Origin: a virus
Virus genome (UHGV): UHGV-0082481
DNA: 27,357 nt
Direction: 5' to 3' (one strand)
In this document: in pieces, positions 2,119-27,357 of the stretch
Position numbering within the stretch: the stretch's first letter is position 1
Layout: every line of letters starts with the position of its first letter
Notes under the pieces: generated by a model
Told to the model about the DNA's origin: nothing
The model's database searches: none
What the model saw: the letters and a program-made list of their open reading frames with translations, nothing else
Translations under genes and position numbers: made by a program

Positions 2119-2720
2119 GGATTCACTCTCATTGTGTCAATAACATGGACCGCCCCGCCTTCATGCGCGGTGCCACCGGAAATAATCGTTTCGTTGATAT
2201 ACGGATAGATCGTGATTTCTTCGCCAAGATAGCTGGCGGCTCCCACCCAATGCGGGCCGCTGGTCTGCAGATTGATGGACATGCCGATCATGTGGCGGCT
2301 ACATGGTTTGGCATCGCTTATCAGTCGCTCAAGTTCCAGATAGGTATCTTCAGTGATGCCCTGGTCCTGCACGCCGATATCCAGGCGAAACGTGCCCGGT
2401 GTTTCTCCGGTCTGCCACCACTCAATAATGCGGATCAGGAATCCGAACGGCTCCACCACCCGCCGCACGGCACTGGTGGTCCCTTTATGCTGATGAATAT
2501 AAAAAGCATCCTTCACCACCTGGCGCTTGACGCTTTCTGTCCAGCCCTCGTCCCAGCGATCCACAGAGAACGCCCAGGCGAGATAAGGCAGGAAACTGAC
2601 CGGACAGGTTGCCGGATTCCACAAGTCACGAAGCGGCACCTGCAGATCAGAAATCCCGCTGCAGGTTTGCGCCAGTCGGCGCTCCAGTGGTGTTGAACCC
2701 GGTGGCAGCAGACTATTCAT
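2115..2720 (-). CDS. I: Baseplate protein (P2 gpI-like)
   Basis: 201-aa ORF between J and H in conserved P2 order; N-terminus MNSLLPPGSTPLERRLAQ typical of gpI; overlaps neighbours by a few bases. Confidence 0.85.
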   Translation of the reverse strand: MNSLLPPGSTPLERRLAQTCSGISDLQVPLRDLWNPATCPVSFLPYLAWAFSVDRWDEGWTESVKRQVVKDAFYIHQHKGTTSAVRRVVEPFGFLIRIIEWWQTGETPGTFRLDIGVQDQGITEDTYLELERLISDAKPCSRHMIGMSINLQTSGPHWVGAASYLGEEITIYPYINETIISGGTAHEGGAVHVIDTMRVNP

Positions 2721-3621
2721 CCGTTCCTCCGTTGGTTACGCTCCACTGCGTACATGATGCCGCCTGTGTTTTGTTCAGGACCACATCCGCCAGAGGAGAA
2801 GCCAGCTCCACACGCTGCACCCCCTCAACATGCAGGGCGGCAAAGATGGCGCTACGGCGAATATCCCGACCAAGACGCGTCTGACTGGCGATGTACTTCT
2901 GCAGGCTGGCTTTTGCCGCTGCCATTACCGGCTCTGCTTCCGGTCCAGGATAGAGAAAAATGGTGGCTTCCACGCGATACGGGATGATTTCTGCGCTGCG
3001 AACCGTAAGACGGTCAGCCACCGGGCGGACGTTCTCACTGTTCAGAGCTTTTTCCACCACGTCCAGCAGGTCTTTTTCTGCAGTTCCATCGCCTTCGCGG
3101 CTAAGGACAGTCAGCACCACCTCTGCAGGTGCCGGGCTGGTTGCACTGGCATCCGCCACCCGACCGTCGGCGCTTCGGGCATGAAATTCATAAGCTGCAG
3201 TTGGCCCCGCAACAGAAAGCCCTTCAAAGGCTGCAGGCACACGCAGGCGCAACGCTTCATCGCTTTCCATCACAGCTGCAACGGGCGGCACAGCATCATT
3301 ATCAGCAGGCGTCACCGTCAGGCGTGTCACGTTGTAGTTGGCAGCGAGCTGGTCAAGATCGCCGCCCATCGCGTAAGCCACCATCACCGCCTGCGCGGCT
3401 TCGTTAATGCGCTGACGCAGAAGCAACTCACGGTAAGCGTTCTCCTGCAACAATTTAGTGGCGGGTTCAGATTCCAGTTCCAGCGTGCGGATCACTGCTT
3501 CCTGCTCATCTTTCGGATGAAGCGCCACAAATTCTGCCTTGCGTTCGGCAAGCAGCGTCTCAAAGTCCGGCACATCCACAATCTGCGGTGCAGGCAACTG
3601 CGAAAGGTCAATCACTGCCAT
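2713..3621 (-). CDS. J: Baseplate assembly protein (P2 gpJ-like)
   Basis: Six-frame ORF 2713-3660; likely start is the internal Met (MAVIDLSQLPAPQIV...) at 3621, which matches the gpJ N-terminus; conserved W-J-I order. Confidence 0.85.
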   Translation of the reverse strand: MAVIDLSQLPAPQIVDVPDFETLLAERKAEFVALHPKDEQEAVIRTLELESEPATKLLQENAYRELLLRQRINEAAQAVMVAYAMGGDLDQLAANYNVTRLTVTPADNDAVPPVAAVMESDEALRLRVPAAFEGLSVAGPTAAYEFHARSADGRVADASATSPAPAEVVLTVLSREGDGTAEKDLLDVVEKALNSENVRPVADRLTVRSAEIIPYRVEATIFLYPGPEAEPVMAAAKASLQKYIASQTRLGRDIRRSAIFAALHVEGVQRVELASPLADVVLNKTQAASCTQWSVTNGGTDE

Positions 3622-15276: not shown

Positions 15277-16545
15277 TTAATTTGGCAACTCCAAATCATC
15301 CTTTAGATCTTTGATATCTTGATGTTGCAACCATATTAGGAAGCCTTTATCAACAACATTCAGTTTCCTATTTGTTTGGTCATAATCCAAAATAATAGGC
15401 ATTATATTTTTCTTTATTTGCAAAGACGCCGTTGATTGTAACGACTGAGTAACATTACCCAGGTTTAACTTCTCCCCTCTTGGATGTACACTTTGTAATA
15501 TTGCCCTTATATCTTTAAATTTCAAACCTAATTCAAGTTCACTAATGGTTGATGAAAGGACAGGATATAAAATCCATTTATGCATTTGAAGTTCAGTATC
15601 TTGAAATCCATCTGAAAAATTAATAAGGAAAGAATTGTAACGAGCCGATTGGTCATTAACAATTTTTGCAATGATATCCTTTCCATCCAAACCAGCTCCA
15701 ATAGTTCTTTTTGTTTGCTGAGTCTCTGATATTCCGCATTCAATACACGCACGCCTACATGCTTCTTGCACTAAATAAATACTATTGAGACAGTGTGTTA
15801 CTACATCTGCTTTGAAAGTTGGATCAAAATCAATGTTAAGGAGTAAACCTCCTTTATCAATTGCCATCTCCAGTTCAGAATCTTGCCATTTGTCTGCGTT
15901 AACAGAAATAATCCTGCCAGTTAAGTCACCATTGTAAACAATGAGCCGATTATCTTCTAGCCAAACTCCAACAATTACAAAAATAATGCTTGATGTTTCA
16001 TGAAAGGCTTTTAATGCGATCGAAAAATCTCTTTGAGTTTCGAAAGGCATATAATGAAAATCCTCAAGAACGATAATCTTCTTGAAATTTATAGATTTTA
16101 AAGCCGCTATAACATCATTAACATCATCAACATCAATTTCTAAAGGCGCGGTTACTTGTTCATGAGATTTCGTATCTTCGATCTCGCCTCCGGCACTCGC
16201 CACAAAACCCAAAATAGAAGTTTTTATTGATGCGATTATTTTATTTTTCCCCGTAATACCTTTCTTGGTAGACTGAGTTATTTCGAATCCAGCTCTTTTT
16301 AAAATACTTGCATTCAATTCAGATACATCAGAACGATTCGAACACTGCACCAAAATATAATCATCAGAATTAATACAGTGTTTTCTTACGCAAGTCTTAC
16401 CCTGCTTTGAACTGCCGTAAATAACAATATGTTTCTTTGCTTGTAATTCCTGTTTAAGTTTGAAATCAACATCAGGTCTTTCAATGTAATTAAGTGGCAA
16501 ATCTCTTGAGAGCCCAAAGATATCATTCGTATCAAAAATTTCCAT
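15277..16545 (-). CDS. P-loop ATPase of unknown function (accessory/moron gene)
   Basis: 422-aa ORF, strongly AT-rich; Walker A GSSKQGKT and Walker B-like KIIVLEDFH; convergent with Q, lying between the portal gene and the candidate cos/accessory region. Confidence 0.7.
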   Translation of the reverse strand: MEIFDTNDIFGLSRDLPLNYIERPDVDFKLKQELQAKKHIVIYGSSKQGKTCVRKHCINSDDYILVQCSNRSDVSELNASILKRAGFEITQSTKKGITGKNKIIASIKTSILGFVASAGGEIEDTKSHEQVTAPLEIDVDDVNDVIAALKSINFKKIIVLEDFHYMPFETQRDFSIALKAFHETSSIIFVIVGVWLEDNRLIVYNGDLTGRIISVNADKWQDSELEMAIDKGGLLLNIDFDPTFKADVVTHCLNSIYLVQEACRRACIECGISETQQTKRTIGAGLDGKDIIAKIVNDQSARYNSFLINFSDGFQDTELQMHKWILYPVLSSTISELELGLKFKDIRAILQSVHPRGEKLNLGNVTQSLQSTASLQIKKNIMPIILDYDQTNRKLNVVDKGFLIWLQHQDIKDLKDDLELPN

Positions 16546-17606: not shown

Positions 17607-17840
17607 TTAATGCAGCCAGCTGTCGTCTTCCCACACCTTCTGCATAATTTTCATCACTTGTTTTCTTTCTTCGTCCAGTTGCAGTCCGGTCAGTTCCACA
17701 CCGTTAGAGCTACCTTTGCGGATGCGAATTACCGTTTTGGGATACAGGGGGCGCAGATTGCGGTAAAGCTCTGATTCAAGGGCGTCCAGGGTAGACTGGC
17801 TAATCTTCTGCTCTTTATCGATCATTATTTCAATGCGCAT
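17607..17840 (-). CDS. DinI-family protein (186 Tum C-terminal-like; possible SOS antirepressor component)
   Basis: ORF 17607-17912; start at the internal Met (17840) gives a 77-aa protein MRIEIMIDKEQ...KVWEDDSWLH that parallels E. coli DinI (MRIEVTIAK...ETWESADDWFVSE); GAGGTG RBS upstream; downstream of a LexA box. Confidence 0.7.
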   Translation of the reverse strand: MRIEIMIDKEQKISQSTLDALESELYRNLRPLYPKTVIRIRKGSSNGVELTGLQLDEERKQVMKIMQKVWEDDSWLH

Positions 17841-17850
17841 AAAAGTCACC

Positions 17851-18039
17851 TCAACTGATGACATCCATTGAGCGGTTGTATTCGTGAGTTCTGATTTTTG
17901 CCATGAGTTCATCAGTCAACTCAGAAACCCACTGCAGAGCCAGCCCCTTCTCTTCATCACTACACTCACTAGCCGCTACAAGCTTAAGAAAAAAATCAAT
18001 GCGCTGGAGCTTCAAAGACTCCAAAAAATAGTCCTGCAT
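17851..18039 (-). CDS. Small protein, first ORF of the LexA-controlled operon
   Basis: ORF 17851-18138; plausible start at the internal Met (18039, MQDYFLESLKLQRIDFF...) with GGAGG upstream, about 40 nt below the LexA box; ends 10 nt before the DinI-like start in a different frame. Confidence 0.4.
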   Translation of the reverse strand: MQDYFLESLKLQRIDFFLKLVAASECSDEEKGLALQWVSELTDELMAKIRTHEYNRSMDVIS

Positions 18040-18077: not shown

Positions 18078-18097
18078 CACTGTTTATATTTACAGTA
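18078..18097. promoter_or_regulatory. LexA (SOS) box
   Basis: caCTGTttatatttACAGta fits the CTGT-N8-ACAG consensus with an AT-rich spacer; an overlapping half-site TACTGTATATA lies just upstream (18063-18073). Confidence 0.7.
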
Positions 18098-21982: not shown

Positions 21983-22324
21983 TTAATTCGGCATGGTTAG
22001 CCGTCTGGGAAATAAGCTCACCACTGCACGAAAATGATTCATTGCTTTAATCAACTCCCGCTTTTCGTCAGTGGTCAGCTCATTAATGCTGATGCTATGA
22101 CGTTCAGCTGGAATTTTTGCCATAAAGAATATAGCAGCCAGTGCCCGTTTATTTTGTTCGTTATTGATATCCCGTGGATCACGCATATCTTTAATAAACC
22201 GCTCAAGCTCTGACTCAATATTCAGGCCAAAAACTTTCGCCCTTAGCTCCGCAATGTGATTAAGTCCATTCAGGCGTTCACCGGGGCTTAATGGAACAGT
22301 CGCCGCAGCGCCATTAATTGCCAT
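21983..22324 (-). CDS. Hypothetical early protein
   Basis: 113-aa ORF in the early operon; no recognisable motif. Confidence 0.5.
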   Translation of the reverse strand: MAINGAAATVPLSPGERLNGLNHIAELRAKVFGLNIESELERFIKDMRDPRDINNEQNKRALAAIFFMAKIPAERHSISINELTTDEKRELIKAMNHFRAVVSLFPRRLTMPN

Positions 22325-22346
22325 AATTCATATCCCCAAAACGCAA

Positions 22347-22571
22347 CTATCGTTGTTTGTTATTACGGTAACGTTCAAGAGGAGATACATTTTTTCGTAT
22401 CGTCTCTTTAACCTGCTCTCCCCGTAAAAACGTCCCATCTTTTAGCGTGAAAAAGTAACTGCCATCGCCCGACAACGACGGATAACAACAGAGCAAATCA
22501 TCTTCAGGTACTGAATAACTCTCCCCTCTGTAACGAAACTGATAAACCACTTCACTTTCCGCTGCATACAT
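22347..22571 (-). CDS. Hypothetical early protein
   Basis: 74-aa ORF with GGAGAAAG RBS about 7 nt upstream of the ATG; overlaps the longer ORF 22442-22768 in another frame. Confidence 0.45.
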   Translation of the reverse strand: MYAAESEVVYQFRYRGESYSVPEDDLLCCYPSLSGDGSYFFTLKDGTFLRGEQVKETIRKNVSPLERYRNNKQR

Positions 22572-22745
22572 TTTGACTTTCTCCGTTTCCTCGTGGTCAA
22601 TTCAGACAGCAATTCATCTTGTGAATGACATGGATGCCAGCGTTTTCCATCCTCACCCATGATCCAGCCGTGACCGTAGTGCATTGCCGGGCTTTGCTTT
22701 ACCAGCAGCGATGCAAATGATGGTTCTTTCGTCAGCATAAGTACC

Positions 22746-23255
22746 TCACAGCAAACCGAATGAAGCACCGAGGCCAGTCACGGTATCAACTGCACTCGCC
22801 ATCGCAGGGTTAGCCTGTAAACGGGCCTGCAATGAAACAGCAGCCAACGCCATCAGTCGTGTTACAGAGTTAATGCTGCTGATGGCATCACGACGACCTG
22901 CACTGGTTTTTACATCGCCAGATACCGCACCTGCAGCAACACGCCCGATCTCTGCGGTTGCACTCATGACGTAATGTGGCAGTTTCTCTTTTGCCACCTC
23001 ATTAATCGGTACACATGGCAGACAATGAATCTGTGCCAGAAAACCGTCTACCAGCGTTGAATCTTCAGTCAGATCGGTAAGCAGCCAGATTTCTGGTGCG
23101 GTTAATAAATGAGGTTGAGCTGGGTTCAGTTTGTTCCGCAGAATCTGCACATTCATGCCTGCACGTTCTGCCAGTTGCACCAGGTTGTGGCGCAGTGCGA
23201 ATGCACGACAGGCTTCATCAAAATGTGGATGTTTGGAAACTTGGTAATCAAACAT
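22746..23255 (-). CDS. cII: CII-like transcriptional activator (phage 186 CII family)
   Basis: ORF 22746-23309; start at internal Met (23255) with GGAG RBS gives 169 aa, [24 protein letters not shown]..., matching my recollection of 186 CII in length and N-terminus; sits after the Apl-like gene as in 186. Confidence 0.65.
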
Positions 23256-23287
23256 AGTCGACACTCCTGATGCACCCCAAAATGGAA

Positions 23288-23509
23288 CTAGTTGAATACA
23301 ACATTGCAATCAGTAAGTGCATCAACGGTAAGAGCAGCAAGGTTGATCATTACCTTTTCTCTTTTCTTGTCTTTCCGAAGGCGATGGCGAGGGATGCGAC
23401 CATCAGCCAGCATATCGTTGATGGTGTCGATAGAAAGACCAGTAAGTTCGCTATAACGCTCAATTGTGACGTGTGGCGTATTCAGAGTTATTGAAATGTT
23501 AGGGGTCAT
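23288..23509 (-). CDS. apl: Apl/Cox-like excisionase and lytic-switch regulator
   Basis: ORF 23288-23590; start at internal Met (23509, [10 protein letters not shown]...) with AAGGAG RBS gives a 73-aa HTH-like protein, first gene of the rightward early operon, divergent from the repressor. Confidence 0.6.
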
Positions 23510-23552
23510 GATGCAACATCTCCTTTTAGCTTGTGGTGAGCTGGTTTTAATC

Positions 23553-23568
23553 GTGATAACAACATCAC
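23553..23568. promoter_or_regulatory. Inverted repeat in the cI/apl switch region (candidate operator)
   Basis: GTGATaacaacATCAC lies in the 88-bp interval between the divergent apl and cI starts. Confidence 0.3.
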
Positions 23569-23597
23569 AAAACGGAGAATAGGTTCGCATAAAGAAT

Positions 23598-24542
23598 ATG
23601 TCAACTCAAAAATTCACATTTCGCCATATGGATGACGATATGAAAGCCGTTGTCATACAAAATCGTGGTGGTCAGAAAGTAATCGAACGGATACTCATGG
23701 CTTATGGCTTCAAGTCACGCCAAGCATTCTGTAACCATCTAGGTATTTCCCAAAGCACGATGGCTAACAGATATGCCCGCGATACATTTCCTGCAGATTG
23801 GATTGTTATCTGCTCACTGGAAACAGGAGCATCAATTAAATGGCTAGCATTTGGTTCAGATGATGACGAACAAATGCCATCCCCTTCACCAGAACAGCAT
23901 GTTGAAACACACTCCGAAGATGGTTCTTATCATGATGTTCACTATAAACAACCAAAGTTCGACAATGAAAACATCATTGATTATTCTCGGGGTGGCAAGG
24001 AAGCAATAGAGCGAATTGTTAGGGCTTACGGTTATAAGACTCGCCAAGCCTTAGCTGATCACTTAGGTATTTCAAAAAGCACATTAGCCACAAGATATAT
24101 GCGTGATGTTTTTCCTTCAGACTGGATAATTAAGTGCGCTCTCGAAACGGGTACTTCACTAATGTGGCTAACTACTGGTAAAGGCCCAAAGTTTGACGAT
24201 GCAAGAAATGATGTAATTGCTATTACTCACAAAAAAATTACTGACGGGAATCTATTTGATTCAAATTTCTATATGCTTGATAAAGCGTTACTACCAGACT
24301 CAATCCAATTACCATTGATTGTTAGCACCGAAAAAAAAACCTACCTATGTAATCAATCATTCGATGAAATTACAGATGGTAAATGGATTGTTAAAATAGA
24401 AGGGAAAGTGAGCATTCGAACCCTAACTAGAATACCTGTAGGAAGATTAAAAATTTCAGACAATGATTTATCATTTGAATGTAAAATTTCAGATATTGAT
24501 GTTATTGCAAAATGCAAATTTATTCTGATAGAAGAATTATAA
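23598..24542 (+). CDS. cI: Immunity repressor, 186 CI-type, with tandemly duplicated N-terminal DNA-binding domain
   Basis: 314-aa ORF divergent from apl/cII; two copies of a CI-type HTH module (IERILMAYGFKSRQAFCNHLGISQSTMANRYARDTFPADWIVICSLETGASIKWL and IERIVRAYGYKTRQALADHLGISKSTLATRYMRDVFPSDWIIKCALETGTSLMWL) plus a ~120-aa C-terminal domain; AT-rich. Confidence 0.75.
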   Translation: MSTQKFTFRHMDDDMKAVVIQNRGGQKVIERILMAYGFKSRQAFCNHLGISQSTMANRYARDTFPADWIVICSLETGASIKWLAFGSDDDEQMPSPSPEQHVETHSEDGSYHDVHYKQPKFDNENIIDYSRGGKEAIERIVRAYGYKTRQALADHLGISKSTLATRYMRDVFPSDWIIKCALETGTSLMWLTTGKGPKFDDARNDVIAITHKKITDGNLFDSNFYMLDKALLPDSIQLPLIVSTEKKTYLCNQSFDEITDGKWIVKIEGKVSIRTLTRIPVGRLKISDNDLSFECKISDIDVIAKCKFILIEEL

Positions 24543-24554
24543 AAGGATATTGGA

Positions 24555-25532
24555 ATGAGTGGTTCTGATTATAAAAGTAATAGTGAAAAATACACGTCTA
24601 GAAGTATTAAATTAGGAGAATTAAAATCACATTTAACTAATGACACCTATAATACTTTGAAAACCCTATTGGATTCTCTAGCGTTTGATGAATTCGATAT
24701 GCTATTTGATGCTTACAGTCGAAATTTTTCTAAAAAAGAATATAAGTATGCCCCCTTCATGTCCGACCATACATCATTGCAAAACAGTGAAGTAGATAAG
24801 TACCTTTTAAAAATTGAGGAATTAGAACATAAACTACGTGAGTTTCAAAAAAGCCATAACGCTCATTCAGAGCAAATGGAAAAGTTGAAAATGGAATTAT
24901 CAAATGAAATAGAAAGTAAAGAAAAAATAGTATCACAGCTAAAAGACCAACACATCAAAAACAAAGAACTACAGTTTAAAAACCAAGAACTTTCAAGCAA
25001 AATTCAACAAAAGAAAATTGACGAAAAGGTTCCTGAATATGTGCAAGGCGTCAAAGCAAAACTACAGCAGGACGATAAAGACTTCACTACAATGTCTTAC
25101 AATTGGGCGATAGCCGGAATACTATTTTCATTATTATCTATAAGCGCCGCCTTTTTAACATTTTTTTATAAAATCGATATAAAAGATACTACCACCATTG
25201 AACTTTTTTATTATTTCACTCGGGGCTTACTTGGGGTTGCATTACTTTCTTGGCTTTCTTATTTTTGTTTAAACAATTCAAAAAAATACACACATGAAGC
25301 AATCATAAGAAAAGACAGACAACATGCTCTAATGTTTGGTGAGGTCTTCTTACAAATTTATGGTTCAACTGCAACAAAACAAGATGCTATTGATGTGTTT
25401 AAAGATTGGAATATGTCAGCTAATTCTGCATTCGCAGATAAAACGCAGCCACCTCCAAATTTATTTAACATTTTAGGCTCACTTGTAGATAAAAAATCAG
25501 CCGCAAATGATGACATCATTACCAAAAAGTGA
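24555..25532 (+). CDS. Membrane protein of unknown function, co-oriented with repressor and integrase (candidate lysogenic-conversion/exclusion gene)
   Basis: 325-aa ORF 13 nt after the cI stop with AAGGA RBS; strongly AT-rich; charged helical region (residues ~80-170), two hydrophobic segments (WAIAGILFSLLSISAAFLTFFY and GLLGVALLSWLSYFCL), then a ~90-aa C-terminal domain. Confidence 0.65.
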   Translation: MSGSDYKSNSEKYTSRSIKLGELKSHLTNDTYNTLKTLLDSLAFDEFDMLFDAYSRNFSKKEYKYAPFMSDHTSLQNSEVDKYLLKIEELEHKLREFQKSHNAHSEQMEKLKMELSNEIESKEKIVSQLKDQHIKNKELQFKNQELSSKIQQKKIDEKVPEYVQGVKAKLQQDDKDFTTMSYNWAIAGILFSLLSISAAFLTFFYKIDIKDTTTIELFYYFTRGLLGVALLSWLSYFCLNNSKKYTHEAIIRKDRQHALMFGEVFLQIYGSTATKQDAIDVFKDWNMSANSAFADKTQPPPNLFNILGSLVDKKSAANDDIITKK

Positions 25533-25613
25533 TGATGTATGACAACATGTATCTAATACATTGACACTGGTTATACATACAGTAAAAATGCTCTCCACTG
25601 GAGGGCATTTTTT

Positions 25614-26666
25614 ATGGCAGTACGAAAACTCACCACAGGAAAATGGCTTTGCGAATGTTACCCCGCCGGACGTAGTGGGCGTCGTGTGCGTAAACAATTC
25701 GCCACCAAAGGCGAAGCACTGGCTTTTGAGCGTCACACGATGGAAGAAACCGAAGCAAAGCCCTGGCTGGGTGAATCAGTGGATCGTCGAACACTGAAAG
25801 ACGTGGTTGAGCTATGGTTCAAACTACATGGTAAATCTCTGACAGCTGGGCAGCATGTCTATGACAAATTGCTGTTGATAGTTGACGCTCTGGGCAATCC
25901 CCTTGCAACCGATCTCACATCTAAAATGTTTGCCCACTATCGAGATAAACGCCTGACAGGTGAGATCTATTTCAGCGAGAAATGGAAAAAAGGAGCAAGC
26001 CCGGTCACTATTAACCTGGAGCAAAGCTATCTAAGTAGTGTTTTTAGCGAACTATCCCGCCTGGGCGAATGGTCGCATCCGAACCCACTGGAGAACATGC
26101 GAAAATTCACTATCGCAGAAAAAGAGATGGCATGGCTTACCCATGAGCAGATTGTTGAATTGCTGGCTGATTGCAAACGTCAGGACCCAATTCTGGCACT
26201 GGTAGTTAAGATATGCTTAAGCACAGGCGCACGCTGGCGTGAAGCCGTAAATCTTACCCGCTCACAGGTGACTAAATACCGAATTACCTTTGTCAGAACG
26301 AAGGGGAAGAAAAACAGAAGCATCCCTATCAGTAAAGAGCTTTACGAAGAGATCATGGCGCTTGATGGGTTCAATTTCTTTACAGACTGCTATTTTCAAT
26401 TTTTATCCGTGATGGAAAAAACGTCTATCGTGCTCCCTCGCGGTCAACTCACACACGTTCTGCGCCATACGTTTGCGGCGCACTTCATGATGTCGGGTGG
26501 AAACATCCTGGCCTTACAAAAAATTCTCGGACATCACGATATAAAAATGACGATGCGTTACGCACATCTGGCACCGGATCATCTGGAAACGGCGCTCCGT
26601 TTCAATCCTCTGGCAACGCTGCCAAGTGGCGACAAAGTGGCGGCAGCGGTTGGCATTACCCCGTAA
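25614..26666 (+). CDS. int: Tyrosine integrase (P2/186 family)
   Basis: 350-aa ORF; N-terminus MAVRKLTTGKWLCECYPAGRSGRRVRKQFATKGEA typical of P2-family integrases; C-terminal catalytic region HVLRHTFAAHFMMSGGNILALQKILGHHDIKMTMRYAHL with the conserved Arg/His/Tyr residues. Confidence 0.9.
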   Translation: MAVRKLTTGKWLCECYPAGRSGRRVRKQFATKGEALAFERHTMEETEAKPWLGESVDRRTLKDVVELWFKLHGKSLTAGQHVYDKLLLIVDALGNPLATDLTSKMFAHYRDKRLTGEIYFSEKWKKGASPVTINLEQSYLSSVFSELSRLGEWSHPNPLENMRKFTIAEKEMAWLTHEQIVELLADCKRQDPILALVVKICLSTGARWREAVNLTRSQVTKYRITFVRTKGKKNRSIPISKELYEEIMALDGFNFFTDCYFQFLSVMEKTSIVLPRGQLTHVLRHTFAAHFMMSGGNILALQKILGHHDIKMTMRYAHLAPDHLETALRFNPLATLPSGDKVAAAVGITP

Positions 26667-26689
26667 TAACCACCACTGACCACCAACCC

Positions 26690-26721
26690 AACTTATTGTT
26701 TTTACTCTAACTTATTGTTTT
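26690..26721. repeat. Direct repeats at the integrase-proximal prophage boundary (candidate integrase arm sites / att region)
   Basis: AACTTATTGTTTT occurs twice (26690-26702 and 26709-26721) in the AT-rich interval between the integrase stop and the convergent TetR-family gene. Confidence 0.4.
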
Positions 26722-26770
26722 CATTAACCCGTTTACATAAATGGGTTTTTTGTTATCTAAAACTTATCTA

Positions 26771-27337
26771 CTACCCTGCAACCCTCTCAACCATCCTCAA
26801 AATCTCCTCGCGCGATAGCGGCTTACGGTCGGTGACAAAATGCAGCGTCATCCCCTCAATAAACGCATCAAGCGCGCGGGCGGTTCCGGGTTCAAACCAT
26901 TGTTCGAGCGTTTGCTGACTGCGCTGCATCCAGTTTTGCATTACCGTTTTTAATAGCGGTTTTCGGCTAGCCAGCGCGTAGAGCTGGTACATCAGCTCCA
27001 TGTTATCCGGCGTTGCAACCTGTGAGCTGTAGATCATATCGGTGATAGCCTGGCATGCGCCCGGAGCATCACTAACATCGCTAAAAAATGCCTGATATTG
27101 CCGGGACATGATCTCAGTAAAACTGCTGAACGCCTCCAGTAACAACTCATCAATTCCTGAAAAATAGTAGGTCATCGATCCCAACGGTACCCCGGCAAGG
27201 GTAGCAATTTTGCGGTGCGTAACAGCATGTATTCCGTAAAGTTTCACCGCCTCCAGCGTGGCCTGGATAATTTTTTCTCGCCGTTGCGGATCGTTAGCGC
27301 GACGCATGTCATTTCCTCTCTCTGCAATTGTGTACAA
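26771..27337 (-). CDS. TetR-family transcriptional regulator (probably host chromosomal flank)
   Basis: 188-aa ORF with N-terminal TetR-type HTH ([40 protein letters not shown]); convergent with the integrase; composition unlike the AT-rich phage accessory genes. Confidence 0.8.
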
Positions 27338-27357
27338 ATGTACACAACCTTGCTAAT

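Follow-up and report, generated by a model that had tools for sequence, protein, structure and literature searches.

The CI repressor of coliphage 186 governs one of the few phage switches that are understood both structurally and by quantitative modelling, from its wheel and the wrapping of DNA to looping to the FL and FR sites. The C-terminal domain of 186 CI builds dimers and a 14-subunit wheel, and the protein binds operators at the promoter pR, at the flanking FL and FR sites about 300 base pairs (bp) away, and at pB. SOS induction of 186 depends on the LexA-controlled antirepressor Tum, not on RecA-stimulated self-cleavage. The C-type repressors of P2 are small (~100 amino acids, aa), single-domain proteins that bind direct repeats. 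Here, we examine the cI gene of UHGV virus genome UHGV-0082481, a stretch of 27,357 nucleotides (nt) that we call the window. It comprises most of a 186-like (Peduoviridae) prophage integrated beside rcdA in an Escherichia coli chromosome, and its bases 22000 to 27357 are 99.8% identical to E. coli strain SA53-3 (NZ_CP076279). We find that this CI carries two DNA-binding heads in one chain, that the heads have separate ancestries and are kept by purifying selection, that the surrounding switch DNA is a matching mosaic, and that the architecture is widely spread.

By its domains, fold and gene position, the window CI lies within the 186 CI family; it departs from the family in the number of heads. 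Like 186 CI (2FJR, 2FKD), it combines the domain families PF07022 and PF16452, and its gene has the corresponding position in the switch, facing apl-cII and upstream of int. The gene is flanked by int and, on its other side, by an apl/cox-like gene with cII; the gene order is that of the annotated 186 genome, and this is the sole cI gene of the prophage. Its parts are as follows:

23598..24542, + strand: cI, two-headed 186-type immunity repressor; open reading frame (ORF) of 314 aa with two PF07022 matches and PF16452, and the RefSeq name 'phage repressor protein CI' on a 99.9% identical copy
23598..23654, + strand: N-terminal leader, residues 1-19, common by alignment to 207- to 209-aa single-head CIs and weakly constrained
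23655..23861, + strand: head 1, residues 20-88 (hidden Markov model domain 20-90), with recognition helix SQSTMANRYARD ('Q class')
23862..23978, + strand: linker, residues 89-127, acidic, Ser/Pro-rich and predicted to be disordered from low predicted local distance difference test (pLDDT) values
23979..24194, + strand: head 2, residues 128-199, with recognition helix SKSTLATRYMRD ('KT class'), in the place of the 186 CI N-terminal domain and collinear with 2FJR
24195..24539, + strand: C-terminal oligomerisation domain, residues 200-314 (PF16452), 29.6% G+C

Pfam places PF07022 (Phage_CI_repr) on the protein in two stretches (E = 5.2e-58 for the whole protein) and PF16452 (Phage_CI_C) at residues 209-307 (E = 2e-31). 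When the N-terminal 110 residues were compared with the rest by BLASTP, residues 14-86 paired with 122-194 without gaps and with 41 of 73 positions identical (56%, E = 4e-32), a similarity far above chance. The preliminary description, made from the sequence alone, had claimed two tandem CI-type heads in the immunity repressor of a 186-like prophage. The two Pfam stretches and the self-alignment bear out the first part of this claim, and the domains and the place between apl/cox-cII and int bear out the second.

An AlphaFold2 model of the monomer, built from an alignment of 43 homologues, contains two five-helix heads (helices at 13-85 and 132-193), a stretch with pLDDT below 50 (residues 89-128) and a beta-rich C-terminal domain (202-310, pLDDT >90). 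The predicted template modelling score (pTM) of 0.42 fits independently placed domains, and the linker varies in both length and sequence over the 43 homologues. In Foldseek searches, the closest solved structure is 186 CI (2FJR), and the C-terminal domain superimposes on 2FKD with a TM score of 0.89 and a root-mean-square deviation of 1.9 Å. Residues 135-305 are collinear by sequence with residues 9-180 of 186 CI, nearly its full length, so head 1 and the linker are an N-terminal addition. The earlier contrast between a single-headed 186 CI and a two-headed window CI is thus confirmed by alignment: the latter has ~110 extra N-terminal residues (leader, second full head and disordered linker), and its heads are only ~36-39% identical to 186 CI. 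An internal start giving a single-head isoform was considered and rejected, as the Met at residue 93 occurs in only 3 of the 43 homologues.

Two other repressor types can be set apart from this protein. The window CI belongs to other domain families than the P2 C-type repressors, and P2 C and 186 cI have different origins in a published phylogeny (PMC3448106). Pfam found no Peptidase_S24 match in CI, the domain of the self-cleaving repressors of the lambda/LexA type, to which Foldseek gave distant matches only (E of 1e-6 and weaker, 7-11% identity).

The two heads of the window CI have their nearest counterparts in two separate lineages of single-head CIs. Head 1 matches the single head of P0069 from Salmonella at 84% identity; P0069 belongs to the single-head Q class (207-209 aa; loci L005-L007), and full alignment gives CI and these 207- to 209-aa proteins a common 20-residue leader; the likeness extends to the pR-proximal DNA. 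Head 2 is 77-78% identical to the heads of 187- to 199-aa single-head CIs, the K class (P0028, L008; L012-L022), and residues ~116-314, which comprise head 2 and the C-terminal domain, are 80% identical to the 199-aa P0028. Q- and K-class CIs have one head each, whereas the window CI carries one of each kind. Within CI, the two heads are 58% identical, which is also the family median (range 43-65). In a neighbour-joining tree, 35 of 44 head-1 domains fall in one clade with the 208-aa single-head CIs, and the head-2 domains are scattered among ordinary single-head CIs; trees of such 69-residue domains are weak, and the ancestry argument relies mainly on the identity figures. Because each head is nearer to a different single-head lineage than the heads are to each other, these figures argue for fusion, not for duplication in place. 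The simplest reading of the sequences is that the N-terminal domain of one repressor lineage was fused to a complete repressor of another, although the pattern would also fit an old event followed by exchange.

The preliminary description had instead spoken of an internally duplicated reading head, and this was not supported: 84% and 77-78% identity to separate single heads stand against 58% between the two. A recent tandem duplication, with one head copied in place and since diverged, would explain why the heads are clear paralogues in tandem. For this gene, we regard it as improbable and already contradicted, given that head 1 is so much closer to a single-head CI than to head 2, that the leader and the adjacent operator DNA follow the head 1 lineage, and that the heads are nearly saturated with differences at third codon positions. 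At the level of coding DNA, they are 63.9% identical overall and 45% identical at third codon positions, a divergence that is old and does not come from assembly duplication. Duplication in place may nonetheless have happened in the distant proteins P0190, P0251 and P0266, whose heads are 66-70% identical. Neither head of P0190 has a closer match in another protein than its own partner; for P0251 and P0266, closer matches come solely from the heads of a sister two-head protein. By head-to-head identity, the two-headed CIs comprise a large old group (26-43%), groups at 66-70% that could have arisen by true duplication, and, near the window CI, at least three groups that look like fusions. From these comparisons, the architecture appears to have several origins, not one.

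Some prophages carry tandem cI genes. In the E. coli E2348/69 prophage (L091; NC_011601 853539-858051, reverse complement), two cI genes lie at 1381-1950 and 2001-2924: a complete 189-aa single-head CI is followed, after 50 bp, by a 307-aa two-head CI and then by a KAP-family NTPase. The two CIs are 55% identical to each other, so this tandem is no fresh duplication either. No Q-type pR precedes the second repressor, and the two-head allele occurs in at least 17 complete E. coli genomes. It is possible that a tandem of this type is an intermediate state toward fusion. A Yersinia alsatica prophage (L068) has three consecutive CI-like genes (ORF starts 1881, 2543 and 3182; 194-198 aa), each with a different recognition helix. 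Another idea, that the linker DNA is left over from the promoter or 5' region of a downstream-type cI, was rejected, as local alignment of 23850-23995 with the upstream regions of all single-head loci did no better than shuffles (best score 23; shuffle mean 16.6, maximum 30).

Both heads appear to be maintained. In pairwise Nei-Gojobori comparisons with six other two-head genes (synonymous sites are partly saturated in distant pairs), the ratio of nonsynonymous to synonymous substitution rates (dN/dS) is lowest in head 1 (0.01-0.08), the best-conserved part of CI, and amounts to 0.09-0.26 in head 2. The linker (0.55-0.83) and the leader (0.6-1.5) have much higher values, and the C-terminal domain (0.2-0.7) is highly diverged, with a dN of 0.5-0.9 between relatives. 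These ratios clearly indicate purifying selection on both heads and a nearly neutral linker. The heads also differ consistently from each other. Just before the recognition helix, C45 of head 1 and A153 of head 2 are fixed in the 43 proteins; within the helix, Q52 versus K160 and M55 versus L163 hold in 79-95% of them, and A60 (79%) stands opposite L or M at 168. The recognition helices of CI are the same as, or one position off, those of single-head CIs that act as the only repressor at the same switch position.

The preliminary description had left room for a second copy that was part of a known single-domain fold, or for a sequencing or assembly duplication. The two separate five-helix heads of the model exclude the former, and the latter is ruled out by the low third-position identity and by the same gene in seven complete E. 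coli genomes, where the full-length allele occurs at 94-99.9% nt identity. The two-head N-terminal part is present in 34 of 5426 complete E. coli genomes. Among the 120 closest clusters at 90% identity, 45 are two-headed (290-330 aa) and 75 single-headed. Head 1 was the query of an exhaustive HMMER search of 1.84 billion 50%-identity representatives, which returned 162 proteins; two or more heads were found in 26 of 148 further 50%-identity representatives, and all eight full-length ones tested have two PF07022 domains and PF16452. Proteins with four to seven 'heads' were rejected as CI arrays, since both that were tested (P0177, P0192) are unrelated repeat proteins. Two-head CIs are common in prophages of gut bacteria and are frequent in E. 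coli, Klebsiella, Salmonella, Enterobacter, Citrobacter, Kosakonia and Edwardsiella, and also occur in deposited phage genomes such as Klebsiella phage 4LV2017. Of the 80 best loci in a collection with one genome per species, only 2 encode a two-head CI. All of these proteins are annotated plainly as 'repressor protein CI'. A full-text literature search found no paper describing a two-head 186-type CI; subscription journals are mostly outside its coverage, so this is absence of evidence only.

This distribution bears on the idea that the gene is an artefact or is decaying, either as two neighbouring cI genes joined through a sequencing error or frameshift, or as a pseudogene. Tandem cI genes do exist, as in E2348/69 and, three in a row, in Y. 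alsatica, and one relative (L011/P0047) is truncated in its C-terminal domain. The explanation is nevertheless extremely unlikely and already contradicted: the frame is intact, the same architecture recurs in 45 of the 120 nearest clusters, in many genera and in many complete genomes, purifying selection is strong, and this is the only cI in the prophage. The truncated relative, at 2501-3190 of Dryocola sp. BD586 locus L011, is a two-head cI stopped at 229 aa inside the C-terminal domain, and is either a decaying copy or a headpiece-only variant.

The DNA in front of cI contains a predicted promoter and several candidate operators, next to two other genes of the switch:

22746..23255, - strand: cII (PF06892; RefSeq)
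23289..23509, - strand: apl/cox-like excisionase-repressor, 73 aa (phrog_575, E = 1e-31; RefSeq coding sequence)
23553..23568, no strand: inverted repeat GTGAT-N6-ATCAC, GTGATAACAACATCAC, candidate operator just downstream of the pR -10, at about +1 to +16 of pR
23564..23573, + strand: WTCRCA element at -34 from the cI ATG, ATCACAAAAC, from position conservation
23576..23604, - strand: predicted early lytic promoter pR, with -35 TTGACA at 23604-23599, a 17-nt spacer and -10 TATTCT at 23581-23576 (10 of 12 matches in a consensus scan)
23584..23593, + strand: WTCRCA element at -14, TTCGCATAAA, within the pR spacer, from position conservation
23613..23622, + strand: WTCRCA element at +15, TTCACATTTC, in the first cI codons, from position conservation

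This region is a mosaic that matches that of the protein. On the left, apl and the adjoining half of the intergenic region have 81-88% nt identity to single-head phages of the K-type KN class (L021) and 55-63% to the Q class (for apl alone, 81% to L021 and 55-58% to the Q class). The right intergenic half and head 1 have 73-74% nt identity to the Q class (L005). The DNA of the C-terminal domain is 86% identical to the single-head locus L008 and 54-61% identical to other two-head loci, and its G+C content is 29.6%, compared with 48.7% for the window. Together with the following gene, it forms one low-G+C block (24195-25532) that has 86-97% identity to the metagenomic single-head cI loci L008/L009; over the stretch that spans the cI stop codon, its nt identity to L009 is 90-97%. 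This points to a recombination joint inside cI, between head 2 and the C-terminal domain. Including this one, three joints are visible in these alignments; the other two lie in the operator region and around the linker. The same alignments indicate that the pR-proximal operator-like elements travel with head 1.

The predicted pR has its -35 over the cI start codon, in the same relative place as the pR of 186, in an intergenic region of 88 bp (129 bp in 186). The inverted repeat at 23553-23568, which the preliminary description had named as one candidate operator, is present just downstream of the -10. Its left arm lies in DNA common with KN-class single-head phages and its right arm in DNA common with the Q class. 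The spacer of the repeat varies among six diverged two-head loci, while its arms are mostly conserved (GTGAY / WTCAC), with exceptions in L002 (GTGGC) and L093 (TTCAT). The candidate operators are unlike the A-type and B-type inverted repeats of 186. The layout of the WTCRCA elements at -34, -14 and +15 is common to the two-head loci and to four of the five distinct Q-class single-head loci. Between the -34 and -14 elements, the spacing is 20 bp, equal to the two-turn spacing at 186 pR, which has three operators (PMC3675496), and the L001 version of the -14 element, TTCACATAAAGAATAT, resembles the 186 FR site TTCACATAAAGTGAAT. An internally duplicated head had been expected to change operator geometry and immunity specificity; given a layout like that of Q-class single-head phages, the geometry at pR may not have changed at all.

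A second fusion family, L095, offers a comparison. Head 1 of this family has a helix like that of 186, and the inverted repeats to the right of the same KN-like left DNA (CTCACAAAATGTGAG and GAGAATTTATTCTC) also resemble those of 186 and are quite unlike the elements described above. This fusion is apparently independent of that in the window. As the window CI and L095 both pair head 1 with its own operator type, the pR-proximal operators follow head 1 in two separate cases.

Taking these results together, the best overall explanation, which we hold with somewhat better than even confidence, is a working two-headed immunity repressor in which a Q-class head is joined by a linker to a complete K-class 186-type CI and in which head 1 reads pR. 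The chain would consist of three modules: a helix-turn-helix (HTH) head and leader from the Q-class lineage of 186-type repressors, a flexible linker of ~40 residues, and an essentially complete 186-type CI of the K-class lineage with its own head and C-terminal domain. The C-terminal domain would still build the wheel, which would give four heads per dimer. Head 1, on its long tether, would read the WTCRCA elements overlapping pR, which probably entered the phage together with it. Head 2, in the canonical rim position, may bind the remaining arm of the inverted repeat at pR together with weaker sites in the K-class part of the switch, or else the operators of K-class phages.

Several observations weigh against this assignment of heads to sites. 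The candidate operators are assigned by position and conservation. WTCRCA is low in information, with an estimated ~10 matches expected per 27 kb, and the inverted-repeat pattern was seen once, with 2.4 matches expected for a looser pattern. The -14 element is present in KN-class single-head phages too, so it may be part of the promoter and not an operator. Furthermore, K-class single-head phages with the same recognition helix have dissimilar candidate operators (L012 versus L067), which makes helix class a poor predictor of the target site. Inverted repeats of K-class type (TCAC-N2-8-GTGA, CCCAAWTGGG) were searched for in the switch region and none was found, leaving head 2 with no obvious target of its own in this phage; elsewhere in the window there were two matches, with three expected. 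The window does not include gene B, and the pB region was taken from the 99.8% identical SA53-3 prophage. A motif search of this region against the switch gave no 12-of-14 matches and four 10-of-11 matches, compared with 1.4 expected (shuffle maximum 6), which is not significant. Motif searches for FL, FR or pB sites found no convincing ones.

One further element, CCCAAAATGGAAC (23275-23288, between the apl stop and the cII start), was considered as an FR-like, class-specific operator and rejected, because all four CI classes have it, with variation, at this junction. A role in cII expression or the pE region is more likely than one in CI binding. The 10-nt core of this junction element, CAAAATGGAA, recurs in the pB region of the SA53-3 prophage (L094 8641-8650).

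The lack of an obvious site for head 2 also bears on a dual-immunity reading, which overlaps with the explanation just given. If the heads differ in specificity, head 1 would shut the phage's own Q-type pR and head 2 would shut K-type phages, so that a lysogen would be protected against both. The two heads have their close relatives in two different single-head lineages, the differences between the recognition helices recur across the family, and the E2348/69-type two-head CI is a second cI behind a complete single-head cI, in a variable cargo slot. However, the candidate half-sites of the Q and KT types are alike (TCAC-type), so the specificities may overlap, and head 2 could persist merely as the structural neighbour of the C-terminal domain. 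We regard dual immunity as possible, though doubtful.

Prophage induction would probably follow the route of 186, through a LexA-controlled antirepressor of the Tum type instead of self-cleavage of the repressor. Two features elsewhere in the window are relevant here:

17607..17909, - strand: DinI-domain protein, probable Tum-type antirepressor (phrog_189, E = 2e-30)
18080..18095, no strand: perfect LexA-box consensus CTGTTTATATTTACAG, upstream of the Tum-like gene and the only match in the window (0.25 expected by chance)

The LexA box, the DinI-domain gene and a CI with no S24 domain fit the Tum route. A candidate antirepressor also lends something to the notion that head 1 is not a DNA reader but a regulatory appendage, serving as a docking or decoy site for Tum or as an autoinhibitory domain, and the model places head 1 on a long disordered tether away from the wheel. 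We consider this very improbable. The recognition helix of head 1 is identical to that of single-head CIs, where it is necessarily the DNA reader; head 1 is the most conserved part of the protein; and cognate-looking operator elements were inherited with it.

Downstream of cI lies one more gene of the low-G+C block:

24555..25532, + strand: protein of unknown function, 325 aa (phrog_2628), inherited jointly with the cI C-terminal domain

This gene has a G+C content of 31.9%, and its product has weak coiled-coil and membrane-like matches. The slot between cI and int (window 24555-25532; L090 2953-4558; L092 3453-5223; L091 2950-4467) holds different cargo in related prophages: GmrSD with a HEPN protein, a KAP NTPase, or unknown proteins of 320-350 aa. 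It has the look of a hotspot for variable cargo or defence genes in 186-like prophages. Elsewhere in the window, a 421-aa protein (15277-16545, - strand) matches the PADLOC candidate defence family PDC-S59 (E = 5.7e-72).

Repressors with two DNA-binding domains in one chain have artificial and natural parallels. Engineered single-chain 434 repressors (Simoncsits and colleagues) reportedly carry two HTH domains per chain, with hetero-combinations that recognise asymmetric operators. They are artificial and have no wheel, and could serve as a working model for a composite GTGAY/WTCAC operator. An engineered lambda-186 hybrid repressor demonstrates that the 186 C-terminal wheel works with a foreign head (PMC8053113; PDB 7JVT). 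In that man-made protein, a head from another family replaces the native one, whereas in the window CI a head has been added, naturally. The XRE protein of Clostridioides difficile phage phiCDKH01, a lysogeny regulator, also has two HTH domains in one chain (PMC11172241). It belongs to another HTH family (cd00093) and has no 186-type C-terminal domain, so its likeness to CI is architectural only. We tentatively suggest, as a conjecture less likely to be right than wrong in its full form, that the window CI is a natural 'single-chain' hetero-bivalent repressor produced by recombination of heteroimmune 186-like phages, in which the operator-plus-head module of one became attached to the complete repressor of the other. 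Its wheel would then carry 28 heads of two specificities, its operators would be composite, with an arm for each head type, its immunity would be dual, and the stacking of heads would be a recurrent route to wider immunity.

Two-headed relatives raise questions for the well-studied 186 model: how 28 heads would share a wheel, whether the tethered or the rim head acts at pR, and whether operators are composite. The operator-plus-head module has a different nearest relative from the second head, and the C-terminal domain has yet another, so point mutation seems not to be the only way in which specificity changes: recombination within cI also appears to reshuffle it. The plain label 'phage repressor protein CI' conceals the two-head difference in genome annotation. 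If the heads differ in specificity, proteins of this kind would be relevant for the design of orthogonal synthetic repressors, and they could widen superinfection immunity, which bears on prophage competition in E. coli, Klebsiella and Salmonella.

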